Source: Amphiscolops sp. MND2022 (lineage: Eukaryota). From it: DNA of 63,952 nt. The notes below the pieces were generated by a model, which was given only the letters and a program-made list of their open reading frames with translations, had not been told where the DNA came from and made no database searches. Of the stretch, positions 19,661 to 48,771 are shown in pieces. Each line of letters opens with the position of its first letter. Within the stretch, counting starts at the first letter, position 1. A program made the translations under genes and the position numbers. The stretch lies in NCBI GenBank assembly GCA_964187785.1, contig OZ076409.1:40054001-40117952 (forward strand), in the 5' to 3' direction.

Positions 19661-19671
19661 CTCTTCCCTTC
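19661..19671 (-). promoter_or_regulatory. Polypurine tract GAAGGGAAGAG
   Basis: Pure purine run on the minus strand abutting the LTR. Confidence 0.8.
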
Positions 19672-20429
19672 TGGACTTTTATTCTCCCGAATAAACTTAA
19701 CATCGTTATCGCTGGCTGAACCGAGGGATATGGGTTAAACATAAACAATACAGTATGGTTGTAGGGTGGGGATAAGGTAGTCAAACATCAATAGCTCCGA
19801 TGGTTCAAACTATCTACAATAACTATGAACTAGCCTAACATCGACATTAAAGAAGACGATGAAAAATGCAATTTAAACATATAATCAGAAAAACACCGAA
19901 ATCTCATTAAAAATAAATCTCTAAAGTAAATTTTGGGGTGGGCAACCAAGACAAAAAGTATAGTTTAGGGTTCATAATATAGCGGTGTGGGTTAAACAGG
20001 CGGGGGGTTTTTACGGGCTTACAGAGGAAAAGACAGGTTTAGCACTGGGGTGAGAGTTATGAGAAAGGGGATGTGGGTTTGCCCGTGGACACAGTACTAG
20101 AAAAATGGTTAGGGTCGGCGGTTTGGGATAACCCAATTTAACAGCATAATTTCAACAAGTGTATAAAGAAACAATTGGATGGGCCGGGGTCTCGAAACGA
20201 ATAAAGACCAAGACCATTCCCGAACTTCTGCATGTATTTTCTACTTATTACTGGGCAGCAAAAGAAACAAAAAAACTTTATATCTTCAATACTGTAACAT
20301 CGTTCCTCCAAAATGTAACATGCCGTGCTTTGCAGGAATTCAGCTAGTTTGGTCACATAGATCCAAGAAAAAACTAGTTCAAAATTGAAAAAATTTAGTT
20401 GATGTTTTTAAATAATGACTAATCTTTCG

Positions 20430-22310: not shown

Positions 22311-23145
22311 CGCTGTCTTCCTCTCCCCAGTATGACGCTTTCCACGCTGATGTTGACCTCGTCACGTGTGCAGCGTTTGTGTGCGCCATGCTTTCTGATT
22401 TCGTTTCTTCGTTCTTACGTTGGGCAGCATTGGAACTGTCCACGTCAGCGACGCTTCTCGTCTGCTTCTCCTTCGACAAGATCGTAACTTTCTGGAGACT
22501 TCCGCTACTTTGGGCAACACTAAAGTTTTCTTTGTCGGTCGGCATCCTTTCTGCTTGAGCCTGTGGCTCAGTGTGACGACGTCTAACTCGATGCATTTTG
22601 GCCCACAACCCATTAAGCTGCTGTTCCAAGCAATCTTGGCGTTCCAACTCTCGAACAATCAGGGTAACTTTCGCATGATCTTTCACAACATCTCGGAGGC
22701 ACTCGTCGTTCAAGCCCGACAAACAATTGGAGGCCCAGTGCTCATCACTGAATGTTTTCAGAGCAAGCGTCTTGAATGCGCCTACCCTTCGTGCATAGTC
22801 TGAGATATTTTCTCCTTTCCTCTGTCGAAGCTCCAGAAGCAAACGTTCTTCAATAAGTTCAATCTGGGAAACTCCAATCACTTGCACAGTTCGGCTGAGA
22901 AGGTCCGAAACACTAGGTCCCTCCAGTTCTACTTCAACAAAGAGCTTGGCTTCCAAAAATGCATTGAACAGTGCTCCCCTGAGAGATTCCGACATCATCT
23001 GACAACACGTTTCGTAGTCCCAATTTAACTGCTCGGCCGTGCTCAAGAACTTCAGCAGCCACCCTCTCCAGCTGGGGGAATTGCTACTCGGGAACTCTCC
23101 GACGTCCACTTGGTCTCTCGCAAGACCTCTTACCTCAGTCTCCAT
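22138..23145 (-). CDS. Gag-like ORF1 (335 aa) with acidic tail and no zinc knuckle
   Basis: Starts 85 nt after the PBS; capsid-like motifs WLLKF..TAEQLNW, LRGA and LRQRKGENISDYARR. Confidence 0.75.
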   Translation of the reverse strand: METEVRGLARDQVDVGEFPSSNSPSWRGWLLKFLSTAEQLNWDYETCCQMMSESLRGALFNAFLEAKLFVEVELEGPSVSDLLSRTVQVIGVSQIELIEERLLLELRQRKGENISDYARRVGAFKTLALKTFSDEHWASNCLSGLNDECLRDVVKDHAKVTLIVRELERQDCLEQQLNGLWAKMHRVRRRHTEPQAQAERMPTDKENFSVAQSSGSLQKVTILSKEKQTRSVADVDSSNAAQRKNEETKSESMAHTNAAHVTRSTSAWKASYWGEEDSGDDCDDLVGDHEGTAHKQHQRTELWSYSSDEESSDEENDELWSELYSDVDYDCPYES

Positions 23146-23229
23146 CTCTCAGCAAGATAACTCTGTAAAATCCACTGATCTCTTCAACAGAGTCTACAAA
23201 CGTCCACAGTAACATCAAAAAGAATGGGT

Positions 23230-23248
23230 AGCCCACCCAGGAGCGCCA
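23230..23248 (-). promoter_or_regulatory. Primer-binding site complementary to the tRNA-Asn 3' end
   Basis: Plus strand AGCCCACCCAGGAGCGCCA resembles the animal tRNA-Asn 3' end (..AGCCCACCC.GG..CG-CCA) and lies 1 nt from the LTR. Confidence 0.85.
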
Positions 23249-23249
23249 C

Positions 23250-25235
23250 TGTAAGAAAATCCAATTCGGGGGTCGGAGAGAGTTTTACCTCGGATTGGAA
23301 GCTTAACAGACAAAAAGGTTGTTTTAGTGAGTTAGCCAATTCTCTTGAAGTTACTGTCTATTTCTCTCTCCAGATTTGCTCTATCGGCTCGCGTCTTCCA
23401 AAAGCTTCGAGTAATGGAATAATAAAATTACTTCTTTAACGGAAACAATGACACTGGGTAACTCAAATCAGTCAAACTAACTAATACTCATCAATCGAAG
23501 AATCAATCTTCGATTCAGCCAATTACAGGTTTATATCACAAGTCCCGGACTTGTCATGTAAATCTACTGAACTGGCGACAACGTAATCTTCTAGAAGTGT
23601 CTCTTGTCTCGGCGAGACTCAACCTTCTAGTTCTCTTACTCGCTTGTCGAGAAACGCGAGTATTAATTCGAACAAGTATCTTGCCTCCGCGAGACTCAAC
23701 TTGATTCCAGCTTTCTAACTCGGTTCTGCCTATTCAAGTATATTGCAATTCCGCCTCGATTATATTTGTTCATCGCCCGCATTTTTGTTGTACCGATGTC
23801 GCTCTTTTATTTGCATGCTTTTAACTTCATGTAGTTTCATTCCTTTTATGGCACGGCGGCGCCCTAGTTATATTTCGGCCAGACATACTTCGCCGCCAAC
23901 GGCAAATAGTTCAACAAAGGTTGTACAAAGTACACATATCAATAATAATTCAAGTCAACCAAGATATTTCCAATATCGAGCCAATCGTTTAATGACCTTC
24001 AGTTACATGGTTTACATGCTCTCTACGTGTGAGGGTTACTTTTCCGTCCTTTTGGGCGCAATGCCTCGCAAATTGTTCCGCCTGGCTGAATTGCATAAAT
24101 TATCACGCAAAGATGCTGATTTACATGATTTATCGTAAGTTTCTCTAAATGTTCCGGTGTTGCATCTGAAATGACCTTGAGGTCCTTCTGTGACCTTGAA
24201 GTTAATCATCCTCATCCAGAGTTGCTACATGCCAAGTTATATCCTCCTAGGGTCAATGGTCTTCGAGTTACATGATATGCGTATCGTTTGTTTACTAAAA
24301 GCGGTTACCCCCGCATGGGTTACAAATAAGTTTCCATTCACGTTATAAATCGACTACATTCATCATTCCGGTTCGTTTGATAAATTACAAGCCGAGGTCA
24401 AATACCTTTTATCGGTTGGGCCCGCGCGTCCGGTCCCGCGTGCCTTAAACAAACATTACTCCGCGCGTGGAGGGTCGGTCAATGTATCTTTCATGTATAT
24501 AAGTTAGGGTTACTAGGTGAACATCTTGGGTAAGTTTCTTGATCTTAGTGTCATCCGGTGGCGATTTACATAACGTTCGGGGTTTGTTTACTTGGGGTCC
24601 GTGCTCCTCCTACGCGCATCGTAGGGTTCCCAAAACATTCGCAAACGGCTTAATATCATATGGGCTATCGATCCTTTATATACTACGACTTTTTCCGTGC
24701 TTGGCCGACGAGTTCAGAGGGGGGTCGACCTAGGTCACTTTCGGTGCTAATAGCCCGGGACTGGGGGGGTCTCGGTTCGGTTCCATTTTCATAGATCGGT
24801 AGCATAACAGCTCAGGTATACGTGTGCCAAAATTCAGGTCTCTACAATAAATAGTCTTTGAGAAAAACCGTTTGGGGGGGGGTTTTCCACTTTTGTCACA
24901 CTTGGTTTTCCTGGGTGGTATCTTAGAATTTTTCCGCTCTTAAATGGGACTTAGTAAAATTCGCTCTCAGAGATTGACTCTGACTTAGCCGATTCGAGTC
25001 ATTTCATCGCTGACGTCACTCGCTAACTTGTTAATTTTTGCCTAAGACGTTTCGTTTACTTTATAAAAGTCTAGTTTGCCAAATAAGCCATATCGAAGCA
25101 CACTATTGTCATCCTTTTCAGCTGTTTTCACTTTTCCGACGGTCTAAAAACGTGATTAAAACAGTTCAATCTATCGTATGTACTTCGCGCAAAAGCAATG
25201 GGTTTTCGTGGACGCCAAAAACTAAAATTTCCACA
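23250..25235 (-). repeat. 5' LTR of the minus-strand element (1986 bp)
   Basis: Highly similar to 17683-19660; adjoined by the PBS. Confidence 0.93.
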
Positions 25236-31295: not shown

Positions 31296-33109
31296 GTATG
31301 CTTGCTTCAAAACTCCGACGTTTTAGTTGAACACGTTTTCTGAAAACGCCCTCCTTAAGATTATACACCGCAAAATGGTAACAAAATGCGAAATCTTTAG
31401 TTTTTGCTCAGTGAAAATTCTAATTCGACTAATTTCCAAACGTTTTTGCCTGTTCATTCTTTCGGAAAGCATATTCAGAATGACTGTTAAAATCGAAAGT
31501 TAAAAAACGGCGTTATCGAGACACCGATGATCGAACACATTATCCAAGGAGGTTTTTCTTCTGACCCGTAATCTCTGAGGTAATGCCTAATGAAGTTCAG
31601 AAAATTCCAAAAGTCTTCTCTCCGAAATACAAGGTGATATATCTTTTTAAATTGCGATTCGATTTTAAAAAAACTACCGCTGTAATTCGTATCAGAATTT
31701 GAGTGAGCTTTGCTTCTGAGACTTTTTTGTAAAAATGAATTTATTAAAATATTACGCGCCTTGAAATTTTCCGTTTCAGCGTCCTCAGCGTTTTGGTACC
31801 CAGTGTAACTCAGTGTAACCCACAGTCAGATTTTAGAACATCATCTCAGGATTTTAACCTGAAAAGAGCTTCACCGAGTTCATCGAATGGTCGTTAGGAC
31901 TCACTTTTCAACTTCATGTGAGATATTTTGGGGTGTTTTTTTGCTGAAACTAGGAAACATGCCAGCCAGTTTTTCTGAGTTCAAGAGATCTGCAAACTTT
32001 TTTGTGCCATTCCTGGGGTCTTTTCGACCGATATAAAAATACACATCATCTCAACTTGAGAGATTGACCTAGAAAATTCCGGCTTTTTTATTGACCTGAA
32101 ACCACCATAATGCTTTCAGCCACTATTTGCAAGAGCGCAACAAAGAACAGCTGGATTACCGGACTATTTGTTCTTTCTGGCTGCAGCATCTGGAACACTT
32201 TGAGCAGTTCTACCAGATAAACGAGAGTCTCAGTCTCCACAGTCCTCAAGAGGAGATTTATGACGAAACTTGGGATGAGTTATAACTAAATTATAACAAA
32301 ACTCCCTTTTGCCACCGCCATATTAGTGCTCGCAGAGTTGTTAACTAGTTATTAGAAAAATTGGCACAAACAGAGGTTAATCATCAAAAACAACATCAAA
32401 CATTTCATAGTAATTTCAAGGATGCCTCAAATGAAACTAATTCCAGTTATGAATGGTTTGCGAAACTTGCCTTAATCAAGTATCAGAGGTTTCGGAACTA
32501 TCCTTATTATCAGTGGTTTTGGAAGTTTGTCTGCAATGAAACAAGTTTGGCTTCAGAAGAAAAAAATGTCATTTAGTAAGCAATCGAAGGACAACTTTGA
32601 AAAGCGGTTGGAAATTGGAAATTGAAAATTGACAATGCACAAAAATAGATTTAATAGATTTCCGGTGCAATGAGAGTAACTGCTGCTAATTTTAACCCAA
32701 TAGTAGAGAACAATGTCTGACTGGTTGGTATATGGTGATATACGTTTTTCAAATTTTATATTTTACTACAAAAAAGTAGATATATTTTCAAACATCCATC
32801 TCGTTTTCTAAAACCAAAAGTGCAGAACAAGGTAACTCAATTTGCCGAATTTCAGTGCCTCAGAAAATTATGAATTGAGGCCACAAATATCTCGTCAATC
32901 TCTCACAAGTCTAAAATTGGCGCCAAGCTAAAATCTCAAACAGTGCAACGTCTTTTGAATATGCTAAGATGCTGTTTTCATGAAAAGTCTCAAAATCTCA
33001 CACTACTGAAATAAATACAGAGAGAGACCATAGAAACGGAAAAAATTCTCCAATCCGCAGCTTTCAAAACAACCAAATGGGCGGCAATAAAAAAGTTTTT
33101 CGAAGTCTC

Positions 33110-34669
33110 TGTCCCAGGCGTCCGCCTGTGATGGCAACACATACTCAATCTGCCATAGCTACAAGAAAGCAGAACCCTTCACCCTTCCATTAAATTAGAA
33201 AACTTACAAGGAAAACTATTATTGTTGCTCTAAAAGGTCATGTAAAACTCTATATATTTCATTTTGTGCAAGTTATATTATGTAATTCTATGCATTAATA
33301 CGAGTTAATTGGACACCAAGGCGTACAGGTAAAGGAAACGCGTTCAAATGTTTTCTTGCCTGTCGCCTTGGTCCGCAAGTCCGACTAACTCGTCATCCAA
33401 TCATAGCGCAGTGTTATGTAACCTTTACTCGTGCTAGCTTAATAGAATTAAAAGACTAGACAGCTATATGCCGCCTGCTAATAAAGCGCTGGGCTGTACC
33501 AGTCTATTGGACACTGAGTCCGCGCTTTAATTGAGAGTGCTATTCTATCTAGCAGTACTGGTTATGTAATAGATAATCTTTTGATAGCTAATAAAAGGCG
33601 CTATTAGTCCTCAAAGGACTGATTTAATATTTTAGACTTAGTTTGATGGTGTTGCTTTATATGTAATTTGCGCAATATATTTAGAATATATGTAAAATTA
33701 CTATCTATACATGTAATAAGCATTTCATACATGTAATATGTATTTCATACATGTAGCACGTTGCTTAGTATGCATGTAAGCAGTTGCTTGTCCTAACGGA
33801 CTCATGGTCCCACCGCCACATTTGCCGCCAAGAGGGACCTTTGATCTACATGATGTAATGTTGACGTTGCCTGCTATTTATAGATTGTAGCTATATTTAG
33901 AAAGCCTTTAAGGCTATTTTTAGATTATGACCACCATTTTATTGAGTGTCATGCAAATTCAAATATATATAACCGGGACTGGTGGGCCCGGGGACAGAAT
34001 TATCCTGATGATACTTTGATGTGTTACTGTTGCGAATTGTTTATTAAAACTACCCGTTCATTTTCACTTTGCAAGCCCAAGATATTAATTTAAATTCTTG
34101 CCTCTTGCAATAATCTCTTATGCCTTCTACTAGACGTCAGAAAGCCAAAGCTAGGAGATCTAGAGAAATGGACATACTGTCCGACTATGATAACCTAGAT
34201 GTGATGCTGGGAAATGAAAATAACAATCCCATTGAAAGAGAACTAGCTGAAGCAATAGATCAGTCATCGGCCCACGGGGACGGTGATACAAACGTGTACC
34301 ATGAAAATGAGTTTAGAGATTACTTACATGAAAATGAACCTTTGAGACAAAACGAAGTCAGGCAATCCTTTGAAGCCTTTTCAAGTGAGTTTAATCTTAG
34401 ATTATCTCAAGAAATGGAATCTATGATGTCAATAATGCATAGCCAAATAAATAGAGCTATATCGACAGCTATAGCTGAAAGAGTTATTCCAGAAATACAG
34501 AATATTGCAAACTCGATGTCCTCTATGGGACACAGGGACACTGAGGCCAGTTCGTCCCCGAATAGCCAGGAAAACAGGGAAAGCGCACCCGGGCCTAAAA
34601 TAAAAATTGCAAAGAAAGATTCAAGATCTGTAGGTGACTTAAGAGATACCATGGGTCATGGTTCTTACA
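33110..34669 (+). repeat. 5' LTR (1560 bp)
   Basis: Near-identical to 47153-48712 (about 4 substitutions seen by eye); TG...CA termini. Confidence 0.96.
33964..34048 (+). promoter_or_regulatory. Candidate LTR TATA box (33964-33972) and ATTAAA poly(A) signal (34043-34048)
   Basis: TATATATAA followed about 70 nt later by ATTAAA, both upstream of the gag ATG; order fits U3-R-U5. Confidence 0.4.
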
Positions 34670-35808
34670 TGGTGACAGGAGCTACCGACACCCAACCGCA
34701 AATTCCCGAATTTCTGACCGGACGAATCCACTCAATCCCGAACCTAGAGAGACAACAATCTACACACAATATCTCTCTGGACACGACTCTGCCAGCCCCG
34801 GCCCCAGAGGCTCCTGAACCTCCTCAGGACCCGTTTAATAGATTAGCCGACGTATTGGTCAATTTGCAAAACAAACCGCAATCTATGACCATCAGACCCG
34901 TACAAACAACCCCGATGACATTTGATGGGAAAAGTGAGAAATTTGAGCTCTTTGAGGACTTGTTCCATACGATGATCAAAATGCAGCCCACAATGACAGA
35001 ACAAATGAAAATTAATCACTTTCATTCTTTGCTACGAAAGGGAGCATTACAGACATTCAGGAACATAAACTCAATCAACCGTCAAACTCTCGAGGACGTA
35101 CTGGTCATATTCCGGAGGAAATATGTCAAACCGGAATCACAAGCAACAGCAAAGCATAAATGGCACCGATTAACCTTCGACCCAAGTACAATGAAACTAC
35201 CAGACTTCTTGGAAGAACTGAACCAAGGTGCAGAAAAAGCATTTGGGGAAAACGCTAAAAGCATGATCGACAGCTTGTTATACGCGAAATTACCCCCAAA
35301 ATTGAAACGATCTGTCAACATGGCCCGTCTGGAGAATGGCACGTATGAAGAAATAGTAGCTCATCTTGAAAGAGAACTGGAACTCAATGCATTAGAAGAG
35401 TCAGATGATCTGCCAATGGCCACTATGGCCTCGGCGTCCACGAGCCATAACAACTTATTGTCCAATGGTATCAACACAAATAAAGACGCCCAATGCTCAT
35501 ACTGCAAAGCGACAGGTCATTATTACAAAAACTGCCCGAAACTCAAGAAGAAAAAGGAAATGGAGGACAAAGACGGTAAAAAACCTCAACGTCCAACTTA
35601 CCCACCGTGTGACACATGTGGCAAAAAGAACCACCCAACCGAAAGATGCTGGCAAGGCGCTGGCGCCCACCTGCGACCCAAAAGGATGCAGACAGAACAA
35701 AATGACCGAAATGCTATAGACTCCGAAGGAAAGCCTAAAAAAGCAAATGACTCAGAAACGGCTACTTCAAGCCAATCCAATACTAAAAAATCTGATTCAA
35801 AAAACTAA
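34120..35808 (+). CDS. gag: Gag (562 aa), two CCHC zinc knuckles
   Basis: Capsid-like region (FDGKSEKFELF...), CSYCKATGHYYKNC and CDTCGKKNHPTERC (both CX2CX4HX4C), located upstream of pol. Confidence 0.93.
   Translation: MPSTRRQKAKARRSREMDILSDYDNLDVMLGNENNNPIERELAEAIDQSSAHGDGDTNVYHENEFRDYLHENEPLRQNEVRQSFEAFSSEFNLRLSQEMESMMSIMHSQINRAISTAIAERVIPEIQNIANSMSSMGHRDTEASSSPNSQENRESAPGPKIKIAKKDSRSVGDLRDTMGHGSYMVTGATDTQPQIPEFLTGRIHSIPNLERQQSTHNISLDTTLPAPAPEAPEPPQDPFNRLADVLVNLQNKPQSMTIRPVQTTPMTFDGKSEKFELFEDLFHTMIKMQPTMTEQMKINHFHSLLRKGALQTFRNINSINRQTLEDVLVIFRRKYVKPESQATAKHKWHRLTFDPSTMKLPDFLEELNQGAEKAFGENAKSMIDSLLYAKLPPKLKRSVNMARLENGTYEEIVAHLERELELNALEESDDLPMATMASASTSHNNLLSNGINTNKDAQCSYCKATGHYYKNCPKLKKKKEMEDKDGKKPQRPTYPPCDTCGKKNHPTERCWQGAGAHLRPKRMQTEQNDRNAIDSEGKPKKANDSETATSSQSNTKKSDSKN
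34670..34682 (+). promoter_or_regulatory. Primer-binding site TGGTGACAGGAGC (probably tRNA-Leu type)
   Basis: TGG directly after the LTR CA; its complement ends CTCCTGTCA-CCA, close to tRNA-Leu 3' ends. The tRNA identity is tentative. Confidence 0.75.
35799..35805 (+). promoter_or_regulatory. -1 ribosomal frameshift slippery heptamer A AAA AAC
   Basis: X XXY YYZ heptamer in the gag frame immediately before the gag TAA; pol lies in the -1 frame and is open across the site. Confidence 0.8.
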
Positions 35809-35810
35809 TT

Positions 35811-38800
35811 TTGCCACGACTCCAAATACATGACTATATGTCGGTTCGACAATATGTCATTTCAGATCCTCCAATAATCAAATACAGCCAAACAATCAAG
35901 GATACAAAAGGAATTCCCACTGTTGTCTGGCAGCAACAAATGGAAAAAGCCTGTATCCGAACTTATAAAATAGTACATAATGATCGCCCAGACCGATTTT
36001 ACGAAATAGACTATACTAAAGACTTCGAGACTCAATTCCGTCCCTTACCCTTGATCGAAGATTATCACCCTCAATACCCCGATCCTGATTATGGCAAAGA
36101 CCCGTATTGGGACGACGAACTCTACGACAGACAAAAACTCCAGTTTAGACAAGACGAATATCCACCAACGGACGATGAGGATGATCCCCCGATAGTGGAC
36201 AACAAACTATCCAGAGCCCTCATTGAACTTTGGCAGCCAAATTCCGAAGCACTTTTAGAAGAAATCGAGGAAACTCAAGAGCAAGAAGACTTTCACGGCC
36301 CTGACAGCCTTTTAGACGAAACAGCCTTCTTGCACATTTTAGTGGAAGAACAAGGAGAACCGTCATACGTTCCCCTCTCCACCAACCTTGGCCTCAAAAT
36401 CAAAAGGAGGATGCTATATTTCCCAATGGACTTTGGAGAACTAACATTAGATGGTCTCATAGACACTGGGGCCCACTCCAGTGCAATACCAGAAGCTGAC
36501 CTTCGGAAAATACGGCTACTTGCACCCCAATCAATAGTGAAAGAGGGTCCTGCCCCGTCATTCCAAATTATGGTCGCAAATGGAGACCTGGAAACTCCGA
36601 AGAGTACAGTAGAACTGAAGTTCGAAGTAGGGGACATAGAGTTCCATGAAATCTTCATAGTGATGGAAAAATTATCCAGCCCCATAATTGGACTTATGTT
36701 CTTACAAAGAAACCACACAGTCCTAGATATGCGCCAAGGCATACTTAACTTTCCCTTCTTCTCGATGCAATTGAAAACAGCTGACCATAAGTACTCCAAT
36801 GTGATGGAACCTATCCTCAACCCCGAGGATATAACGATTCCCCCAAATGGACGAACAATCATCCCTATCCAATCTCAAATTTATGCGGAAAACGCTGTCA
36901 CTGGAATCTTACAACCCAGTGACCTTCTAAATGAAGAAAATGATATAACATTTTGTGCCGCCATAGTCACATTGGACGAAGGGACTACGAGGATCCATGT
37001 CAACAACTTCACAGATCAGCCCTTTAAACTCAAAAAAGGAATGCACATAGCGAATTTCTCTGTGATGACTCCAGAGCAAATGAAGCATGTTAGGCCAATA
37101 GACCCAGTGTCCACTTGGCACCTACTCAATGAAAATGAAGAAGACGCTATTTATTATATCAGCAGTCTTCTCAAAGCCAACAGGAACAATGACCAATACG
37201 AAAAATACTGGTTTCCAACACCCGAAAACCCAGGGGACGAAGAGTCCCATATTCCAATACAAAAGAGAATTCTTAGAGAATTACGAAACCTGCAAGAAGC
37301 AGAAAAACTCAACCCACAAGACAATGAAGAATCTCGACAAAAATTCCTCAGTAACTTTGACTGGAGGGACTCAATGCTACAACAGCATGAAATCAAACAG
37401 ATAGAAGCGCTATTAGTCGAATTCCACGACATATTTGCCCGTCATAGGTTCGACATTGGTATGAATGAGGAGTTCACGGTCAAATTGACCCCGAAGGACG
37501 ACTCTCCTGCCTACAGCCAGAGCTTACCAACTCCGGTCAATTTAAAAGAGGACATACTGGTCGAATTAGCGTCACTACACAAATATGGTATTATAACAAC
37601 ATTACCATTCTCAAAGTACGCTAGCCCTATCTTTGCACAAAAGAAGCCTAATGGGAAACTACGACTACTGGTAGACCTCAGGAAGATCAACAATCTTATT
37701 TCTGATGATTATATCAACAACAACCATCCAGTCAGCACCTTAACGGACGCTGCTCAACATATGGCCGGAAAGAAACTTTTCTGTAAACTTGACTGTTCGC
37801 AAGCGTACCACTGCCTTCAAATGGCGGACCAACGGTCTATAGAGATGTTGGCCTTCAACTTTGCCAGCCGAACGTTCGCATATCGAAGATTGGCCCAAGG
37901 TTTCAGCAGAGCCTTATCGGCATTCTCCAGTGTTATGAGAGAATATTTGGACCGTGTCATCAAAGCCGATCAATGCGCCCAATACGTGGATGATATTGGC
38001 ATTGCGGCCAACGACGCGGAGCATCTCATTAAAAATCTCAGAGCAACTTTCGAATGCATCCGAGAGGCTGGATTGAAATTAACGATGCATAAATGCCACT
38101 TTGGAGCAACTGAGATTGATTTCTTAGGAAGGACAATCACCCCTGAGGGTGTCAAGCCCCAGAAGGAACGAGTCACACAATTCCTAGAAAAAACGAAATT
38201 CCCAAAATCCAAAAAAGCCTTACAACGTTACCTCGGATTCCTCAATTATTATAGAAACTACATACCGAGGTTATCAGAAAAATTAGTCCCTTTCTTTCAA
38301 CTATTAAAGAAAGACGAAAAGGTCTTAGTCACAACGGAACTGATCGAACAATTCAACGAGATCAATAGAGATTTGGACAGATGCACCCAGCTAGCCCTTA
38401 GGCAGCCCTTGCCAAACCGACAGCTAGTCCTGATGACAGATGCTAGCTTTACAGCAGCCGGATATGCTATACTTACTGAAGATGATCCAAATCAGAAATT
38501 TACCTCAACCAAGAAATCCTATGCGCCTATTGCATATGGTTCAAAAACTTTTACTCCTTCACAACTTAAAATGTCAATTTATGCGAAGGAATTTTTAGCC
38601 ATCTATTACGCCTTCAAAGAATTTGGACATATATTCTGGGGCACACCTAAGCCGGTGATTATCCTCACAGATAACAAATCGGTCACAAGGTTCTTCCAGA
38701 CTAAAATAATACCGCCGCCATTATGGAACGCGTGTGACTTTGTAATTCAGTTCAATTTCACTATAGCGCACATTCCAGGCAAAAACAACACAGCGGCGGA

Positions 38801-40958
38801 CTACCTGTCCCGCATGGAAATGGACCCCACTGAAAAGTTAGTCCTAAAAATCCGAGCGGACGTTGAAACCCAACCCATTGAAGTCAATGTCCAATCAGCC
38901 GGCGTGTCTGAAGAAGAACAAGTGTTCTTTACCGAAGAAGACAATGAAACAGAAGAACAAATTTGGGAAAGGAAAAGACAATCAAAAGCAGGACTCAAGG
39001 TCGACGAGACCGTCATCCAAATAGATACTATATCTGAAAATGTAGTGGATGAAAGTACCAATTTCACCCAGAAACTACGTAGAACCAACCAAATACTACT
39101 AGAACAATCCAAAGATCCGATTTTGCTTCATTTAAAAGCAAAAATTCAAAATGAAGAATACTCTGAGGAAATCCTTCAGCAGGACATTCGGTATAAACAT
39201 TATTTAAATAATTTAGACCGTATAGTCCTCAAGGACGAAATAGTGACCCGACAGTATTACGACGAAACGGGACAAATCAAATACCACCAAATCTTACTAC
39301 CAAAGCACCTGTTGAAAGAACTACTGCAAGCAATACATGGCACGGCACATCGACATCCTGGCATCTCTAAAATGCTGCAAGAGATCCGCCAAAAATACTA
39401 CTACCCTGGCATAGCAAAATACGTTAAAAAATGGGTAGAGGGATGCGAAACGTGCGCTAGAGACAAAAGAGTCCCAAATAATACAAGTACAGCAGAATTG
39501 TTGAACTTGCCCGAATGGGACCTTGGTCCAGAAGATGCCATGCAGATAGACTTATTACCAAACTTACCGACTAGTGGCGGATACCAGACGGTGATGACAG
39601 CTATAGATGTATTCTCAAGGTACTTATTCGCCTACCCGCTAATTGAGGCAACAGCCACGAATGTAGCCAAGGTGATAATTGATATCATGACGAAACATTC
39701 ATATTTACCAACAACTCTCATCACAGACAAAGGGTCCGCATTTACATCGACCATCATAGCTGAGATAACTCAAATTTTGGGTATAACACTCAAATGTGCT
39801 ACTACAAAGCACCCGCAAACAATTGGCAAACTCGAAAGGACGCATGCCTCACTCAAAACAAATTTGAAAATGGCCTCAGGGGAATATCGACGCCAATGGC
39901 ATAAATATTTACCATTAGCAGTACTCAACTACAATACCACATACCACTCTAGTATTGGATGTGAACCGAGTAAAGTCTTCCACGGCCGGATTCCCTATAA
40001 CGTCCTAGACCACAAATTGGGAAATAACCCCAATAAAAATTTTTTGCCAACTACAGAATTTGCGGAGGAAGTACAGCAGAGGACACAAATCCTCATAGAT
40101 CAAACGAAAAAGAACATCATGCAGTCTTATTTGAAATATAAGGACTATTACGACCGAAAGGCAAAGGCTGCCCCGCTTAAAGAAAAGGACTATTGTTTTG
40201 TTCTACAACCTAAAGCGGACAGTCAAGCATCAAAAATTCCATTCAAGGAATACAGGTGGATTGGACCATTCGTCATTCAAAAAGTACTGTCCAACGACAA
40301 TTATATTGTCCGTCGTCTAAATACAAATAAAACTCAAATACTTCATCGCATTAGACTAAAGAAATTTGTCCCGAATGCCCCTTTAGAGGACAAATACGAT
40401 GGAGAAAAACTACAACCCGACAATGAGATAGTAATCCCGCAAGACGATTTGTACACTATCTCATGGGAAGTAGACTTTGAGTACGACTTATTTGAACCGA
40501 GGAAGGAAAATTGGACAGACGTGGCCACACGCCGGCCGACGGACGCCGAGTCCACTAATACGGACAATGACGTTACCGACGAGGAAAGCGCTATCAATGA
40601 AAGCTGCAGCGAGCGCACGACAAGAAATTACGTCACCGAGAACGAACGCGTCAGCAATGAAAGTTACAATGAGCGTACGACAGAATATGACGTTACCGAG
40701 GACGAAATATCCCCGAGAGAGAACAATAGCAGTGACGAACCGTCCCCCCCGACTCAAACGTCACAGCGCACTGAGAATGAAAATGACGTCACTAATGATT
40801 TACAAGATACGGAAAACGTTTCAAACACAGGCGCAGATATTACCGTGCCCGGAATATCAAAAAATGGAAATTCAAATGAAAATTCGAGCCCTAGAGGAGG
40901 GAAATACAATCTTCGACCTAACCCTACCCCCAACTTTACTGATGAATACAGATACTAG
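35811..40958 (+). CDS. pol: Pol polyprotein (protease, RT, RNase H, integrase); probably translated as a Gag-Pol fusion rather than from the listed TTG
   Basis: LIDTGA protease motif; YASP..KKPNGKLRLLVDLRKIN and YVDD RT motifs; TDAS/TDNK RNase H; HHCC zinc finger, D-D-E (QIDL, ITDKG, LERT) and GPF integrase motifs; 1715 codons uninterrupted. Confidence 0.97.
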   Translation: MPRLQIHDYMSVRQYVISDPPIIKYSQTIKDTKGIPTVVWQQQMEKACIRTYKIVHNDRPDRFYEIDYTKDFETQFRPLPLIEDYHPQYPDPDYGKDPYWDDELYDRQKLQFRQDEYPPTDDEDDPPIVDNKLSRALIELWQPNSEALLEEIEETQEQEDFHGPDSLLDETAFLHILVEEQGEPSYVPLSTNLGLKIKRRMLYFPMDFGELTLDGLIDTGAHSSAIPEADLRKIRLLAPQSIVKEGPAPSFQIMVANGDLETPKSTVELKFEVGDIEFHEIFIVMEKLSSPIIGLMFLQRNHTVLDMRQGILNFPFFSMQLKTADHKYSNVMEPILNPEDITIPPNGRTIIPIQSQIYAENAVTGILQPSDLLNEENDITFCAAIVTLDEGTTRIHVNNFTDQPFKLKKGMHIANFSVMTPEQMKHVRPIDPVSTWHLLNENEEDAIYYISSLLKANRNNDQYEKYWFPTPENPGDEESHIPIQKRILRELRNLQEAEKLNPQDNEESRQKFLSNFDWRDSMLQQHEIKQIEALLVEFHDIFARHRFDIGMNEEFTVKLTPKDDSPAYSQSLPTPVNLKEDILVELASLHKYGIITTLPFSKYASPIFAQKKPNGKLRLLVDLRKINNLISDDYINNNHPVSTLTDAAQHMAGKKLFCKLDCSQAYHCLQMADQRSIEMLAFNFASRTFAYRRLAQGFSRALSAFSSVMREYLDRVIKADQCAQYVDDIGIAANDAEHLIKNLRATFECIREAGLKLTMHKCHFGATEIDFLGRTITPEGVKPQKERVTQFLEKTKFPKSKKALQRYLGFLNYYRNYIPRLSEKLVPFFQLLKKDEKVLVTTELIEQFNEINRDLDRCTQLALRQPLPNRQLVLMTDASFTAAGYAILTEDDPNQKFTSTKKSYAPIAYGSKTFTPSQLKMSIYAKEFLAIYYAFKEFGHIFWGTPKPVIILTDNKSVTRFFQTKIIPPPLWNACDFVIQFNFTIAHIPGKNNTAADYLSRMEMDPTEKLVLKIRADVETQPIEVNVQSAGVSEEEQVFFTEEDNETEEQIWERKRQSKAGLKVDETVIQIDTISENVVDESTNFTQKLRRTNQILLEQSKDPILLHLKAKIQNEEYSEEILQQDIRYKHYLNNLDRIVLKDEIVTRQYYDETGQIKYHQILLPKHLLKELLQAIHGTAHRHPGISKMLQEIRQKYYYPGIAKYVKKWVEGCETCARDKRVPNNTSTAELLNLPEWDLGPEDAMQIDLLPNLPTSGGYQTVMTAIDVFSRYLFAYPLIEATATNVAKVIIDIMTKHSYLPTTLITDKGSAFTSTIIAEITQILGITLKCATTKHPQTIGKLERTHASLKTNLKMASGEYRRQWHKYLPLAVLNYNTTYHSSIGCEPSKVFHGRIPYNVLDHKLGNNPNKNFLPTTEFAEEVQQRTQILIDQTKKNIMQSYLKYKDYYDRKAKAAPLKEKDYCFVLQPKADSQASKIPFKEYRWIGPFVIQKVLSNDNYIVRRLNTNKTQILHRIRLKKFVPNAPLEDKYDGEKLQPDNEIVIPQDDLYTISWEVDFEYDLFEPRKENWTDVATRRPTDAESTNTDNDVTDEESAINESCSERTTRNYVTENERVSNESYNERTTEYDVTEDEISPRENNSSDEPSPPTQTSQRTENENDVTNDLQDTENVSNTGADITVPGISKNGNSNENSSPRGGKYNLRPNPTPNFTDEYRY

Positions 40959-41194
40959 TCAGAAAACTTGAATTACCAGTCCCTTTACTTCACTTCCAGC
41001 CCTTGAGGACTTTTATTTTTTACTTGGGACTACTCTGACTGATTTTTCTTATCGATTACTGGAACTAATTATATACGAAAAGAGAGACTCAGTGGCGAAT
41101 AATACAAAGCCACACAAACAGGCAACAAAGAAGAAATAAATATAATGCAATTTACAACAAGTACAGTCTAGAAACAAATGTACTCTTTGTACAT

Positions 41195-42345
41195 TTAAGA
41201 TTTAGAAGTTCCAGGAGCGTTTGCATCACTGGACTTTGCGGCTTCAGTCTCACCAGCTGCCCGAAAGCCAACTTTCTTGCCTTTACCAGGGGACAGCTTA
41301 CGTTGTTTCCCCCCTTCTTTGGACGAGGAATTGGAAGCGGACTCGATGTCAGGACGGACACTCTTGCCCAGAGCCTTGTAGACTGCAATTAAAGTTTTAT
41401 GCAAATTAGCCTTGCCGAAACTGTCTACGTGTGACCAAGGGTCTCCTGGGACGTTGCCAATACTGAACCGGAATTCCAGATCTTTGAAGGTACCCAGGGA
41501 AGCTTCTGTAGTGCACACAGCCACTGAATTAGCAACATTAGCTAGGTAAGACTGTGCAGGCATGATGACATCGAAAAGTCTACTTCGGGGATCATTACAG
41601 TCAACTCCAGAGAATTTGATGGCTGGGAGCTCTGGCAACTTAGAAGTCAGGCACAGACAACTCAACTGGAAGATGTAGAACAGATGCTTCCGCAACTTCA
41701 ATTCAGGCATACCAATCAGAAAGGCTACCATGTCGGTGAAGACCTCTGGGGTATCTTTGACTCCAGAATTGGCTTGACGGAAAAACTCCACGAAATCGAT
41801 GTACTCATCTCGGGCATCAGTCTCTGGGGAATTCTCTAACCAGCCTCGCAAACTAAAGGATCTGTACAGAGCGGAGAAACAATATGTGGCTTGCTCAAGC
41901 GGCAGACTCAGGAGGGCTACTGGATCGAAACTGCCCAGACCTCTTACGATACCAGCATTCAAGCTAATGTCGGCAAGGAAGACTTTCAAAAGATGGACGA
42001 GGTAACCTCGGGCCTTGGTGGCGAAATCGTCCCGAAGGGCCTCAGCTGCTGTCTCCGTCTCTTCAGGCGTCAGTTGCTTCTCGCTATAAATTCTCCTGAC
42101 ACGAGCATGGCAGGCGGCATCCAAATTTTCTTTGAGCTTCAAGCGACTCAAGAAATCGCGGTTAGACAGTTGTCGCCAATTCTGTCCTTGCAAATCTCCC
42201 AGCGACTTCCAGTCCAGAATATCAGGCACGTGTCTGGGAAGTAGTGCTCGACCTGCCAACTTGCGAATGAAAGTATGGAACTCTCGGAAGGTGTAGAAGC
42301 CACTGTCCCTTCGCTGTGCAAACTGACTCTCGAAGCTCTTGGTGT
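41195..42345 (-). CDS. Antisense cargo gene, terminal coding exon 4 (1151 nt)
   Basis: Acceptor TTTTGTTTTCCAG|AC in phase 1 joins the 390-codon ORF; minus-strand AATAAA at 41012-41017 downstream. Confidence 0.82.
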
Positions 42346-42495
42346 CTGGAAAACAAAACATTACCATCCTGAAGGGTCTTTATGACACCATTAGACCTAG
42401 CATGTCAATCTACTATATCTAGCATGAGCCTCAAATAGTGGTAAGACAAACTGGGACCATGAGGTCCGTAGACAAGAGAAAACCAATATACTAAC

Positions 42496-42712
42496 AATCG
42501 CGGACAATTCGTGCGAAGAACTCCAGCTTGATGGTGAAGAAATCATCAGCTATGATTTCCCACTCGAGGCTTTGGGGCTTGTTTTTGACCCCCTGGTGGA
42601 CCTGTGGTGGTGCTATCTTCGTCAAATGTTGGTGTACAGACTTCCAGTTCGCAATTAGTTCCGAACATATGGCAGGTACAGCGGCAATCTCCAGGTGATA
42701 TGTAGTCATCGC
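42496..42712 (-). CDS. Antisense cargo gene, coding exon 3 (217 nt)
   Basis: Acceptor TTGTAG|GCG ATG in phase 0; donor GAT T|GTTAGT (phase 1) removes the in-frame stop. Confidence 0.78.
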
Positions 42713-42780
42713 CTACAATCAACATGCTTATTGGAGGCAATTCAAAACTGGACCTACAGTCTTACGGACAGTGACCTTAC

Positions 42781-43266
42781 CTTGACGAATTCTGGCATCA
42801 GGGCGGCCCAGGGCTGTCCACCGCAACCGTCCAAGAAGGTAATCAGAAATTTCAACTGAGAGAAGAAGCTGATACTGCCAAACACGCTGCCCCATCGTTC
42901 ATGCATCAGGTCTGGCAGACAAAGAGCATCAAATCGGAAAGGGTACTCAATCCCTTTTTGGAAGAGGCAAGAACGTTCAAGAAGAGGAATCACCTCTGCA
43001 GGACACCCGGACACGCTCACGATCTGAGGTTGTGTTGATAGGACGGACAAGAGGCGGGAAAGTACCAACAGGAAACCAGCTGCAGGCTCTGAAGCAGTCC
43101 GGTATCGTAGCAAACGGACGACATTGAGGGATTCGCCCTTCCAGAACCGGATCGAGATAAAGCTGTAGGTGCCTCGCATTTCAAACTCCAGAGAGTACTG
43201 ACCCGTGACACTGACTTGATAGGCGATGTCAGCGATGCCACAGAGGAAGATGTGATGAAAGATCGT
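42781..43266 (-). CDS. Antisense cargo gene, coding exon 2 (486 nt)
   Basis: Acceptor TTTTGTTTTAG|ACG, open in phase 0 into the MRGTYSF ORF; donor AAG|GTAAGG. Confidence 0.82.
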
Positions 43267-43351
43267 CTAAAACAAAATTAACCAGGATGAAAATGAGTCG
43301 GGTCTACGTTAGGACTAAAGGACCCTGAGGCTAAAAACCGCCGATACTTAC

Positions 43352-45181
43352 TGTCAGTTTGGAGGAGCCCCAATCGTAAGGAGAGAACAGACTCTGATGA
43401 TTGGTAACAGTGCCAATCTGTGACCATAGCGACTCAAGGACGTTTAGATCTCCACAACGGGGAGCGAAGAGAGCAACCATGGAGATTTGAACACACAGTC
43501 TGATCTCCTCCTGCCCAGCGATGGAGCCAAGGCCAGCCATATGGTCCTCGTAGAAGGGGTTACTGCTGCCAGTTTCGACCAAAGGGACTTGCATAAAGAA
43601 AGGCTTCTCTTTCTCAAGCTCCAAGGGGGTCAACAATTGGCCCTTCTTCCCTCTGACTTCGTACACAGTCCGGCCAGTCACCTTGTCCTTCTTCCTTAGG
43701 TGCTCATACCTCCAGCGCTGATCTTTGCGAAAATGCGACTCACTCTGGAAATGGCGGACAATCTCCCGGGCTCCTTTTGAGAAAATGGAAACATTCGTCT
43801 TACATATCTGGCAGTAGAACTTATGTTTGTTGTGTTCTGGGTCAAGGGGGCCAGTGACGAATGTCCGAGTCCACTGAATTCCTTTGAAATAGGCTTCTTT
43901 CATTACTTTGCCTGTGCGTACTGGAAGCCGGCGACGTTTGCGAGGTGGACTTGAGGCAGAAGCTTGGTCAGCGGTCAATGTGGCTAGAGGCTCATAGTCA
44001 GTCGAGCAGAATCCTGGACTAGGGACTTGCTGTGCGGATGAAGGGCCAGGTGTTGATGTCGAACCTTGATCTGGAGGACTTGGAGGAGGATTGATGCTCA
44101 GATCCTTGCTGGTTCTCTGAGAATTGATGACGAACTCATCTTCCGAACTGAGGGCTCCGCTAGTGTACCCCTCAGTCCCAACGTCACTGTCTTCCGCACC
44201 TGATCCAAGGCTGCCGCTCTGCTTACGGAAGATCTTGATTCGCTGCTTCCCGGATCCTTGAGGAGTACCTTGGGAGCGAATTCCTGCCCGGATCGCTTCT
44301 TCCAGCATGTTCTTCATTTGATGAAGGGAAGAAGTAATGGTCTCCGTGGAGACGGCACGCAAGATGGAATGGACTTGCCCCTGATTGAAGGCTACAGTCG
44401 CATGGCCTACCGGGAGGATACATGGGTTGGTCTCATTGAAATGCTGATTTATGAGCGTTCTAGCAGAGGCAGATAAAGGTCTGGTTGGACTGAAGGGCTT
44501 CGGAGAAGATGTGCCAGGTAACTCAGCCGAGGTGGATGGCTTAACATTCTCATGGGTCTCAGTCCCAGTGGAGCTTAGCGCATCCAGTGCAATCATGAAA
44601 GGTGGTTCCTTGATGGTCTCAGCACCGGAACTATCGAGTATTTCTTCAGCGTCGCTGGTATCAGTTTGGAAATAGTCCGCCTTGGTGACGGAAAATCCAG
44701 CCTCACTGACAGCATCATCGCCCCGCTCAATCTCAGCCTCAGGAGACTCCTTGTCTTGCGACCCAGTCGTGACCTGGGGAATTGGTTCCGACTCAGAAGT
44801 TTTCTCAGCGATTGACTTTGGTGCATTGTCTACAATGGCAGATGTAGTAGGAGGCAAGAAGGAGATGTCAAGTCCAAGGCTCTGGCAACCCAAAGTCTGC
44901 AATTGACGGTCAATGTAAGCGGAAATGCTTTCATCCGTAGAAGGGCTTGGGGTCGGAGCAGTCTTATCAGGATCATCTCCTGGCGGCACAAGTTGCGTGG
45001 ACTCAGGGTCAACAGGGATCGAAGTGGCCTGACTAGTACCAGCTTCTTTGGGGATGGCAACTTCTTCTTCAGTCATGAATGCAGTAGCGGTGGCAGGAAC
45101 AATATCGTTTTGCTCTTCGGACGACATGTCTAAACAGAAAGAGATAAACTCAAGCGGATAACTTCCTGAGAAAGAGTCCAT
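43352..45181 (-). CDS. Antisense cargo gene, coding exon 1 (S/P/E-rich N-terminus, NLS-like PPRKRRR, BED-like zinc finger); start at 45181 or more likely 45127
   Basis: 616-codon ORF ending at a perfect donor ACA|GTAAGT (phase 0); contains W..FYCQICKTNVSIFSKGAREIVRHFQSESH. Confidence 0.85.
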
Positions 45182-46401
45182 TACCGCGTTAAAAAATCTT
45201 CCGGAAGTAGATATTTCGAACTCAAGTGAATACTTGTGTTATGGGACAGGAAGTACGTGAATGAAATGAGAGCCCTGATCAAGCCTCAGATTAATTCAAT
45301 ACTAAAATAGAAACAAAACCTGAAAAGCTACTGACCTGTTTGAAAGTAGAGAAGGATGTCTTGAGAAGGGAGTACTGTGTACAGTTAGACTGGTGGTCAC
45401 TGAATTGGAAGCTGAGCGATCAGTAGAGAAGGATGACGAAGCTGGACTGGTGACAATACAGCAACAGTTGTAGGGAGAAGACAAATTCTTCTTTGATGAA
45501 GGACAAGAAAGATTGCTGGAGATGAATTAGCAAAAGGGACTCAGTGTCGATTGTCCTAGGATGACCCAAGAAATCCACAAAAGACGTAATTGGAAGAAAT
45601 TACAAATGACTACTTTAAATGAATACTGAGTAAATACGACTAGAAGACTAAAAGACTAGAGATGATTAAATACTGGACGATAATACAAAGAGTAACTGGA
45701 AAGAATTTGAAAATAATGAATTGAAAAGAGAATTGGCAATGTGACAAGATGTCAAAGTTGGAGTTCGTGGCTATACAATTTGGTGTCAAATTTACAAGAT
45801 ATTTACAAGTTACACTATTATGTGGATAGAGTCTGCCAGCGATATCTACATTCTTCCATTTATCTTATTTCGAAACTTTACCATTTTATTAAATATTTCA
45901 TGATTTTACCAGGATTTTATTTAATTTCAGGTCATTTTATATTATTCCTTATATGGATTTACGACCTTGGGAAGCCATTTTTATTCAAGAGAAATTTTGC
46001 TGCATTCCTATTGGTTGATCAGAAACGCTGATGGACGGCGTGGCCGTCTGCCATAGCTTCACCCTCTTGAAACTTTTAAGTGCTTGTTGAGTGTTAATAA
46101 ACACTTGAAGCGACGCCCTTAATATGGAAGTGTTGATAGAGTTGATGTAAGTCAACAAAGCCTCAGTCGGCATTTTCAAAGAAGACCGAGCGGCTAGTTG
46201 AAAGAAACCGAAGAAAAGGAATTTTGTTATTGAGGATTTGGTGAGCCGAGAAGGGCAAAATCCCGGGAAACTGAAAAGAAAATCCCGCTAGTCGACGGAG
46301 GAAGAAATCGCCATTGTTTCAGTTTCAATCTCGAAATTCAGCTGCTTATCAAATTTCAAAACCTAAAACTAACAACTTCCAAGATTGCCAAAAAAGCAAT
46401 A

Positions 46402-47241
46402 ATGAATAAATTCCTTGCAAGTCAATTTGACTCAGAGTCCCCTGAGTATTACCCTGAAGATTTTCAAGGAGCAGCCCCGGGAGACGGTGTTATTTGCATC
46501 TCTAGTGACGACGACATGGAGTGCGCAAGCAGGGCGTCCGTGGATGACTTGGAGAGCCTGTCTGATGACGACGAAATGGCCCTCTTGGCCCAATGTGTGG
46601 AAAGACAACTGGACTTGCCGTCGACTTCAACAGGAATTCAAATCCCCTCAGCTTCAGGAAAGCAAGAAGTGACCCGAGCTACTACTCCCAGGCTTGCATA
46701 CGTGCCGGGACCGATGTTCGACGCTGGGTACTTTGAGCTGGGAATGGGCAGAGGACCAATTGCGAGGGATTCACGGCTTAGAAACGACCATCCAATTAAC
46801 TTGTGCAGCCAACTGATCCCGATGGTCGACACACCCATGTCGCCCCCAGCAATTGATAAATATCCTACGGGCGACTGGAGGATAACCGCAGAAGCCACTT
46901 CTAGCAGCTCCCAACGACACGAAGGTGGTATTCACTTCCGTGGACCGACCGCAGCAGATAACCCGTATATTACAGGGTGCACAGATTGTCTCGTATGTGG
47001 AAAATCTGTGGAACAGATTCAGGACGAAGCGGTCATAGATTATCTTCACAAGACGGCCGTCCGAGGAGAATCCGCCGAGCAGTTCAATGCGAGACGACTA
47101 GCCTTCTTGGAAGGAATGAAGGTGGGCCGCTTTATGCTTATTCCAGGGGGAGTGTCCCAGGCGTCCGCCTGTGATGGCAACACATACTCAATCTGCCATA
47201 GCTACAAGAAAGCAGAACCCTTCACCCTTCCATTAAATTAG
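46402..47241 (+). CDS. Extra sense ORF (279 aa), acidic SIM-like N-terminus and Cys cluster; function unknown
   Basis: ATG-initiated ORF with GC content above the flanks; VICISSDDD and CTDCLVC motifs; crosses the PPT and ends 89 nt inside the 3' LTR. Confidence 0.75.
   Translation: MNKFLASQFDSESPEYYPEDFQGAAPGDGVICISSDDDMECASRASVDDLESLSDDDEMALLAQCVERQLDLPSTSTGIQIPSASGKQEVTRATTPRLAYVPGPMFDAGYFELGMGRGPIARDSRLRNDHPINLCSQLIPMVDTPMSPPAIDKYPTGDWRITAEATSSSSQRHEGGIHFRGPTAADNPYITGCTDCLVCGKSVEQIQDEAVIDYLHKTAVRGESAEQFNARRLAFLEGMKVGRFMLIPGGVSQASACDGNTYSICHSYKKAEPFTLPLN
47145..47152 (+). promoter_or_regulatory. Polypurine tract
   Basis: AGGGGGAG directly abutting the TG of the 3' LTR. Confidence 0.75.
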
Positions 47242-48712
47242 AAAACTTACAAGGAAAACTATTATTGTTGCTCTAAAAGGTCATGTAAAACTCTATATAT
47301 TTCATTTTGTGCAAGTTATATTATGTAATTCTATGCATTAATACGAGTTAATTGGACACCAAGGCGTACAGGTAAAGGAAACGCGTTCAAATGTTTTCTT
47401 GCCTGTCGCCTTGGTCCGCAAGTCCGACTAACTCGTCATCCAATCATAGCGCAGTGTTATGTAACCTTTACTCGTGCTAGCTTAATAGAATTAAAAGACT
47501 AGACAGCTATATGCCGCCTGCTAATAAAGCGCTGGGCTGTACCAGTCTATTGGACACTGAGTCCGCGCTTTAATTGAGAGTGCTATTCTATCTAGCAGTA
47601 CTGGTTATGTAATAATTAATCTTTTGATAGCTAATAAAAGGCGCTATTAGTCCTCAAAGGACTGATTTAATATTTTAGACTTAGTTTGATGGTGTTGCTT
47701 TATATGTAATTTGCGCAATATATTCAGAATATATGTAAAATTACTATCTATACATGTAATAAGCATTTCATACATGTAATATGTATTTCATACATGTAGC
47801 ACGTTGCTTAGTATGCATGTAAGCAGTTGCTTGTCCTAACGGACTCATGGTCCCACCGCCACATTTGCCGCCAAGAGGGACCTTTGATCTACATGATGTA
47901 ATGTTGACGTTGCCTGCTATTTATAGATTGTAGCTATATTTAGAAAGCCTTTAAGGCTATTTTTAGATTATGACCACCATTTTATTGAGTGTCATGCAAA
48001 TTCAAATATATATAACCGGGACTGGTGGGCCCGGGGACAGAATTATCCTGATGATACTTTGATGTGTTACTGTTGCGAATTGTTTATTAAAACTACCCGT
48101 TCATTTTCACTTTGCAAGCCCAAGATATTAATTTAAATTCTTGCCTCTTGCAATAATCTCTTATGCCTTCTACTAGACGGCAGAAAGCCAAAGCTAGGAG
48201 ATCTAGAGAAATGGACATACTGTCCGACTATGATAACCTAGATGTGATGCTGGGAAATGAAAATAACAATCCCATTGAAAGAGAACTAGCTGAAGCAATA
48301 GATCAGTCATCGGCCCACGGGGACGGTGATACAAACGTGTACCATGAAAATGAGTTTAGAGATTACTTACATGAAAATGAACCTTTGAGACAAAACGAAG
48401 TCAGGCAATCCTTTGAAGCCTTTTCAAGTGAGTTTAATCTTAGATTATCTCAAGAAATGGAATCTATGATGTCAATAATGCATAGCCAAATAAATAGAGC
48501 TATATCGACAGCTATAGCTGAAAGAGTTATTCCAGAAATACAGAATATTGCAAACTCGATGTCCTCTATGGGACACAGGGACACTGAGGCCAGTTCGTCC
48601 CCGAATAGCCAGGAAAACAGGGAAAGCGCACCCGGGCCTAAAATAAAAATTGCAAAGAAAGATTCAAGATCTGTAGGTGACTTAAGAGATACCATGGGTC
48701 ATGGTTCTTACA
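47153..48712 (+). repeat. 3' LTR (1560 bp)
   Basis: Copy of 33110-34669, preceded by the purine tract AGGGGGAG and followed by the TSD GTCTC. Confidence 0.96.
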
Positions 48713-48771
48713 GTCTCACCTTGCCGAAAAAGTTTGAAGATGGTTCCCTCTTGTTTCTTCTCGATGCGTAA
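48163..48771 (+). CDS. 3'-LTR copy of the Gag N-terminus (183 aa) reading out into flanking DNA (202 aa total)
   Basis: Identical to Gag residues 1-183, then diverges exactly at the LTR end (GSY-SLTL versus GSY-MVTG). Expression unknown. Confidence 0.5.
   Translation: MPSTRRQKAKARRSREMDILSDYDNLDVMLGNENNNPIERELAEAIDQSSAHGDGDTNVYHENEFRDYLHENEPLRQNEVRQSFEAFSSEFNLRLSQEMESMMSIMHSQINRAISTAIAERVIPEIQNIANSMSSMGHRDTEASSSPNSQENRESAPGPKIKIAKKDSRSVGDLRDTMGHGSYSLTLPKKFEDGSLLFLLDA

Follow-up and report, generated by a model that had tools for sequence, protein, structure and literature searches.

A PBS within the gag frame has been described for the Ty1 element of Saccharomyces, a member of the Ty1/copia superfamily, in which GAG starts in the U5 part of the LTR and overlaps it by about 13 codons. 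According to the accessible part of one report (PMC4974528), the Ty1 PBS maps to nt 94-104 of the genomic RNA, within the GAG ORF, and therefore translation through an LTR end and the PBS was already a known principle. The same numbers would limit the overlap to about 30 codons at most, compared with 183 in the element described here and 114-223 in its relatives. Moreover, Ty1 belongs to another superfamily and has neither a whole domain in its LTR nor a 3' ORF that runs through the polypurine tract (PPT). The first-pass annotation of the locus, which described gag as usually starting downstream of the PBS, had missed this precedent.

Coding sequence is also known at the other LTR end, since nef, a 3' ORF of HIV-1, extends over the PPT and U3, and MMTV sag lies in the LTR. 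These cases concern the U3 end only, and the likeness is one of layout, with no sequence similarity implied.

Among the Ty3/gypsy elements (Metaviridae), the bdelloid Juno, Vesta and TelKA, likened here by description, share the order PR-dUTPase-RT-RH-IN, two zinc knuckles in some of them, a gag-pol frameshift and extra 3' ORFs. However, their LTRs are 159-551 bp long, and gag in the LTR is not mentioned in the accessible part of the source (PMC5408684). In the Gag of Cer1 from C. elegans, a long coiled coil is predicted on the N-terminal side of the capsid in place of a matrix domain, but the LTR of this element is 492 bp long and positions in its 5' UTR are given as nt 957 and 1175, so that Cer1 Gag would start well downstream of the LTR (PMC10309623, accessible part). 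Antisense 3' genes are reported in the plant elements Retand and Grande (PMC7264820, accessible part); these have unrelated hosts, and the predicted four exons and zinc-finger-like stretch found here are likened to them without shown homology. The accessible parts of three further papers, on Tor elements (PMC4402516), LTR structure (PMC3601003) and microsporidian elements (PMC4202319), contained no mention of gag inside the LTR. In the literature searched, which consisted of the main texts of largely open-access papers, we found neither a whole Gag domain inside an LTR nor a lineage with both LTR ends coding.

Here we describe an element in a window of 63,952 nt from Amphiscolops sp. MND2022 (GCA_964187785.1, contig OZ076409.1, positions 40,054,001 to 40,117,952 of the forward strand). 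What appears to be new, judged from the literature searched, is the scale: a whole Gag domain would be encoded in the LTR across a lineage, with an overlap several-fold to about tenfold that of Ty1, and coding overlap occurs at the other LTR end too.

Results

Structure of the element

An intact LTR retrotransposon was present at 33110-48712 of the window (Table 1). Its direct LTRs had TG...CA ends and 4 mismatches in 1560 nt, a target-site duplication flanked the element, and the PBS and PPT adjoined the LTRs. Gag combined a retroviral-type capsid fold with a CCHC knuckle, and the order in pol was PR-RT-RH-IN (PR at residues 212-305, RT 616-781, RH 847-971, IN 1169-1340). By these features the element is a young gypsy-type (Ty3/gypsy) LTR retrotransposon. 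Among solved structures, its RT matched those of foamy virus, caulimovirus-type elements and Ty3 (E 1e-31 to 1e-23). Membership in Ty1/copia was rejected because IN did not precede RT, and the likeness to Ty1 was confined to the PBS overlap.

A dUTPase-like domain was located between the protease and RT (window 36822-37070, pol aa 343-425, Pfam E 4.9e-5); such domains are described as rare in retrotransposons in the accessible part of PMC5408684. A tRNA gene search across the window found none. Outside the element, tandem or direct duplications occupied 8050-12658, 17683-25235 and 48741-56987, with periods of 2.3, 5.6 and 2.75 kb; the last contained inner 231-bp repeats and began 28 nt past the 3' LTR. 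Decayed frames were found on the minus strand at 20430-23148, between the repeats spaced 5.6 kb apart.

Table 1. Positions of features of the element in the window
Feature	Position	Strand	Remarks
Target-site duplication GTCTC, 5 bp	33105..33109 and 48713-48717		flanks the element on both sides
5' LTR, 1560 bp, TG...CA	33110..34669	+	99.7% identity to 47153-48712
TATA-like box TATATATAA	33964..33972	+	putative promoter; putative start near 33995
ATTAAA, candidate poly(A) signal	34043..34048	+	77 nt upstream of gag ATG; LTR position 934
gag, 562 aa	34120..35808	+	capsid fold about aa 270-426; two zinc knuckles
gag codons inside the LTR, 183	34120..34668	+	basic N-terminus aa 1-31; conserved helix about aa 73-134; predicted disordered linker
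att end ACA joined to PBS TG	34667..34671	+	A/TG is Met184
PBS TGGTGACAGGAG, about 12 nt	34670..34681	+	no spacer after 5' LTR
pol frame, 1720 aa stop to stop	35796..40958	+	-1 frame relative to gag; PR, dUTPase, RT, RNase H, IN
A AAA AAC heptamer before gag stop	35799..35805	+	candidate -1 frameshift site; T TTA AAC at the same place in L001 and L002
Predicted four-exon antisense gene, 1209 aa	41195..45127	-	zinc-finger-like stretch; consistent phases, no internal stops
3' sense ORF, 279 aa	46402..47241	+	read through PPT (GGVSQ) and 89 nt into 3' LTR; same frame and GGVSQ in L001
PPT AGGGGGAG	47145..47152	+	adjoins 3' LTR
3' LTR	47153..48712	+	
3' LTR copy of gag N-terminus	48163..48771	+	open: 183 aa and 19 aa from flanking DNA

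The gag frame inside the LTR

The first-pass annotation had placed the start of gag 550 nt inside the LTR, and this was confirmed: the ATG at 34120 corresponded to LTR position 1011 and opened the 562-aa frame, the 550 nt comprising 183 codons and the A of codon 184. The LTR-terminal A and the TG of the PBS formed an in-frame Met184, also as proposed, the junction TAC A/TG GTG ACA GGA GCT reading Y-M-V-T-G-A. The claim that the PBS encodes MVTGA needed one refinement: the PBS seemed to fix only M-V-T-G plus the G that begins the following codon, and among 263 occurrences the fifth residue was A, D, V or E in 260.

Over the 549 LTR nt, the gag frame had no stops versus 12 and 26 in the other two frames, and none of 20000 base shuffles of these nucleotides was stop-free. 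In the 921 nt of upstream LTR sequence the three frames contained 22, 19 and 21 stops. One other frame across the junction was closed by TGA. A single one of the 4 differences between the LTRs fell in the LTR gag stretch, where it was synonymous, and one site carries no weight. No special RNA structure was detected at the junction (z 0.52), nor any Rfam match beyond one at E 0.92. Two upstream ATGs between the TATA-like box and the gag ATG, at 34008 (3 aa) and 34019 (24 aa), opened only short frames. AATAAA also occurred at 34446 and 34599 inside the coding part; polyadenylation there would mean a long R and a short U5.

A comparable arrangement at a distant locus

A profile search for related DNA returned two loci, of which L002 was too short to reach the LTR; none was found in metagenomes (single-protein query), viral contigs or prokaryote genomes. 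The capsid of the other locus, L001, was 46% identical to ours, and its LTR had no nucleotide similarity to those of the window element. The order in L001 was PPT, TGT at 7959, TATAAA at 9165, AATAAA at 9301, gag ATG at 9362, 129 codons, and CA/TGGTGACAGGAG at 9750, the ends of this single LTR resting on the PPT and PBS motifs. AATAAA was 61 nt upstream of the gag ATG, TATAAA was at a place comparable to the TATA-like box in the window, and the strong-stop DNA was estimated at 555 nt. The locus as a whole read pol, antisense gene, 3' ORF, single LTR, gag, pol, which may reflect either a tandem arrangement in which one LTR serves two copies or an assembly that was circularly permuted.

Position of the LTR end in related Gag proteins

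Across all proteins collected, 249 of 252 occurrences of MVTG had Y, D, H or N as the preceding residue. These are the four NAY-coded residues, and this fits an LTR end in ACA (...NAC A/TGG). Similarity was lost at residue 183 in 31 of 188 anchored proteins, one of which, a Pol protein that happened to match the pattern, was left out. In every one of the remaining Gag-derived proteins (30/30), the next residue was one that an A-initial codon can encode; the background in the same tails was 42%. We take these 30 proteins to represent frames that run on from a 3' or solo LTR into the adjoining DNA. Outside the 188, P0052 had a junction break without an A-codon residue and was a deletion joined to Pol. 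The earlier proposal that every LTR copy carries the N-terminal Gag domain was supported for the 3' LTR and for the 30 read-through proteins, and it is likely that each LTR copy carries a promoter together with a genuine protein domain.

In-frame degenerate repeats of the att/PBS junction were observed in L001 (9743-9800) and in proteins P0183, P0283, P0191 and P0217. In L001, CCCTCACATGG recurred 42 nt downstream, and P0283 had three DMV motifs 14 residues apart.

Conservation of the LTR-encoded part

A search with residues 1-183, a query that selects for the extension, gave 203 matches. The best 120, which were examined, were nearly all Gags of 546-571 aa or truncations of them, with the same start and MVTG at 184. 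The LTR part fell to 68% identity (P0121: 123/181) while the capsid remained about 98% identical (166/170); the LTR-encoded part diverged far faster than the capsid, and much of it looked unconstrained. Because this search selects for the extension, a profile of post-PBS Gag only (A1) was built from 16 rows without it. In the best 120 of its 4391 matches, an MVTG-type motif was preceded by at least 100 residues in 104 cases, by 20-99 in 9 and by fewer than 20 in 4, and was absent in 3; counted by cluster members, the same classes among these 120 were 958, 112, 22 and 6.

When 175 full-length Gags, picked for having the extension, were grouped at 80% identity, the resulting 27 groups had 181-217 residues before the motif and two blocks conserved down to 26-33% identity, one of them a basic start that closes with D-x-M-L-G, the other an amphipathic helix. 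M1 and the basic motif were kept at this level, and length changes among the groups were in-frame. More distant representatives (35-50% identity overall) had 114-223 residues before MVTG and again a basic start. On a capsid tree of 26 rows (2 rows without an anchor were dropped), extensions of at least 100 residues occurred on both sides of the midpoint. A profile of the LTR part, compared with 14 sequences, matched P0316, P0190 and P0183 strongly and L001 (E 1e-4), P0211 and P0233 weakly, with no match in P0195 or P0269; any shared ancestry of the most distant extensions is tentative. A search of the ESM Atlas with residues 1-183 gave no usable match.

In five pairs (50-55 differences) substitutions had mean BLOSUM62 scores of 0.02-0.44, versus -0.41 +/- 0.23 in 150 neutral simulations, the pairs not being mutually independent and 8% of the simulations being likewise stop-free. 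The P0506 pair (93 differences) was neutral-like at -0.39. These comparisons suggest a conservative-substitution signal of moderate strength in the LTR part. The dual coding constraint proposed by the first-pass annotation was partly supported, in the form of coding-type conservation of the LTR part and the att/PBS junction, at the protein level in many families and at one distant DNA locus, while its assignment to U5 remains putative. The database relatives were computer-called frames and show open frames rather than translation.

Several capsid relatives began at or near MVTG (P0191, P0200, P0226, P0452, P0459 and P0181). The last three neighboured extended forms on the capsid tree, like decayed copies; P0191, P0200 and P0226 may be decayed copies or families without the extension. 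The sequence comparisons as a whole indicate that gag in the LTR is a trait of the lineage and no recent accident.

Mosaic Gags were observed among P0015-P0039: P0025 resembled P0048 over most of the LTR-encoded part and P0001 after the PBS (76/77), as if LTR segments recombined separately from the internal region. The window itself contained a decayed distant relative at 2881-4061 (53% to the P0233 capsid) with a degenerate same-frame junction YN-MMTG at about 3145 and a remnant N-terminal extension upstream. A decayed LTR-type Gag N-terminus at 5008-5395 (73% to P0319 over 52 aa) ended in ...TACA with no capsid behind it and was probably an old solo or 3' LTR.

Predicted structure of Gag

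The best structural match of the capsid was the PNMA2 capsid (E 3.9e-4), the only match below E 0.001, and the dArc capsid was also among the top matches; the pLDDT of the capsid model was about 90. A first structure model had low confidence (mean pLDDT 44.6). In the LTR-encoded part, a helix was predicted at residues 73-134 (pLDDT 78-90 over 81-130), followed by a linker at 135-236 with pLDDT below 50. A predicted complex of three copies of residues 62-142, the only copy number tried, scored 0.59 versus 0.01 for the best control, with contacts agreeing at least 72% between runs and pLDDT of at least 70. In calibration, 21 of 30 solved same-chain pairs attained the mark for this score, whereas none of 23 single chains did; this calibration was on two-copy microbial proteins (eukaryotes 17/29, animals 7/16) and fits only roughly. 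The LTR-encoded helix is predicted to self-associate as a coiled-coil oligomer.

Genes at the 3' end

The antisense gene was predicted to have exons at 45127-43352, 43266-42781, 42712-42496 and 42345-41195, with introns of 85, 68 and 150 nt. It had a homolog in L001 (about 2500-6900, minus strand; E 6e-22), and the zinc-finger-like stretch was common to both. The antisense gene and the 3' sense ORF diverged across non-coding 45130-46400, a stretch that may be a two-way internal promoter.

The 3' ORF also read through the PPT/U3 end of the LTR, which had been absent from the first-pass annotation. In L001 the corresponding ORF (7318-8037) encoded GGVSQ across the PPT and the U3 att end and ended 79 nt inside the LTR. 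The two 3' ORFs gave no significant alignment and had only GGVSQ in common. Since the PPT is read into U3 in both families, both LTR ends would be coding. Each 3' ORF had a hydrophobic-acidic motif (VICISSDDD and IVIIDSDS), which to us recalls SUMO-interacting motifs. No Pfam envelope match was found in the 3' ORFs, which looked low-complexity or zinc-finger-like.

Discussion

The gag frame started 550 bases inside the LTR and ran without a stop through the att end and the PBS as far as the capsid region and beyond, and we consider it likely, with a probability of about 0.8, that it is translated from the ATG at 34120. As modelled, the LTR thereby likely contributes to Gag a basic N-terminus and a helix for which a coiled-coil oligomer is predicted.

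The near invariance of Met184 could suggest that Gag is made mainly from this codon or a later in-frame ATG, the upstream frame being little used, or that both starts yield a long and a short Gag. We regard this as improbable. Since CA/TGG forces an ATG in the gag frame, conservation of Met184 is no evidence of its use as a start, and at least nine in-frame ATGs precede it. The first start has a weak context and two upstream ATGs before it, but M1 was kept along with the basic motif in the most divergent groups. A few representatives begin at Met184, yet P0452, P0459 and P0181 are placed on the capsid tree as decayed copies would be.

It is even less probable that the LTR frame encodes a separate or spliced accessory product, as the CERV protein of Cer1 is made from a spliced RNA, and that its continuity with gag is incidental. 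The frame was continuous with the capsid in 104 of the best 120 (of 4391) matches, and no conserved splice donor was found in the DNA of two families. An arginine-rich basic start with an oligomer helix is what one might expect of a nuclear factor or one for RNA export, and the element has predicted spliced and extra genes elsewhere. According to the accessible part of PMC10309623, export of Cer1 gRNA uses a spliced accessory protein, but in Cer1 an N-terminal coiled coil is predicted for Gag as well.

That the repeat exceeds the true LTR, through a segmental duplication or a mis-set boundary, so that the real LTR would exclude gag, has only the unusual layout in its favour and was refuted by the TG...CA ends, the directly adjoining PPT and PBS, the 5-bp target duplication and the break at residue 183 in 30 of 30 independent copies.

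Translation from the ATG at 34120 would fit the following cycle. The RNA would start about 30 nt past the TATA-like box, near 33995, and ATTAAA would direct polyadenylation such that R is short (about 70 nt) and gag takes up most of a long U5 of about 600 nt. Ribosomes would translate through U5, the att end and the PBS, and a -1 shift at A AAA AAC would yield Gag-Pol. The att/PBS peptide (Y/H/D/N)-MVTG would sit in the predicted disordered linker between the helix and the capsid, where a peptide fixed by its nucleotides should cost little. In particles, a tRNA would prime at the PBS, and minus strong-stop DNA of about 675 nt would copy the domain into the 3' LTR. The copy in the 3' LTR would lie past the poly(A) site and hence be absent from the genomic RNA.

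A bolder and doubtful extension is that the LTR is a self-contained gene cassette with both integrase ends coding. Each solo or 3' LTR would then supply a promoter, the oligomerising N-domain of Gag and a random tail; its capsid-less products would poison or tune assembly as copy number rises, acting as a copy-number brake, and might seed host genes. LTR exchange would swap the domain as a module, and the LTR end would creep along the Gag linker by in-frame att/PBS duplication.

Annotation tools work on the assumption that LTRs do not code for protein, and this lineage appears to break that rule. About a third of the LTR would encode a structured Gag domain, as predicted, and the att ends, PBS and PPT all lie within reading frames. 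It becomes testable how a gypsy element copes with a long strong-stop DNA and with translation of its PBS. It can also be tested whether the many solo LTRs yield truncated Gag that restrains the family, which would parallel Ty1 p22 (PMC4551931, accessible part) but from the opposite end of Gag.
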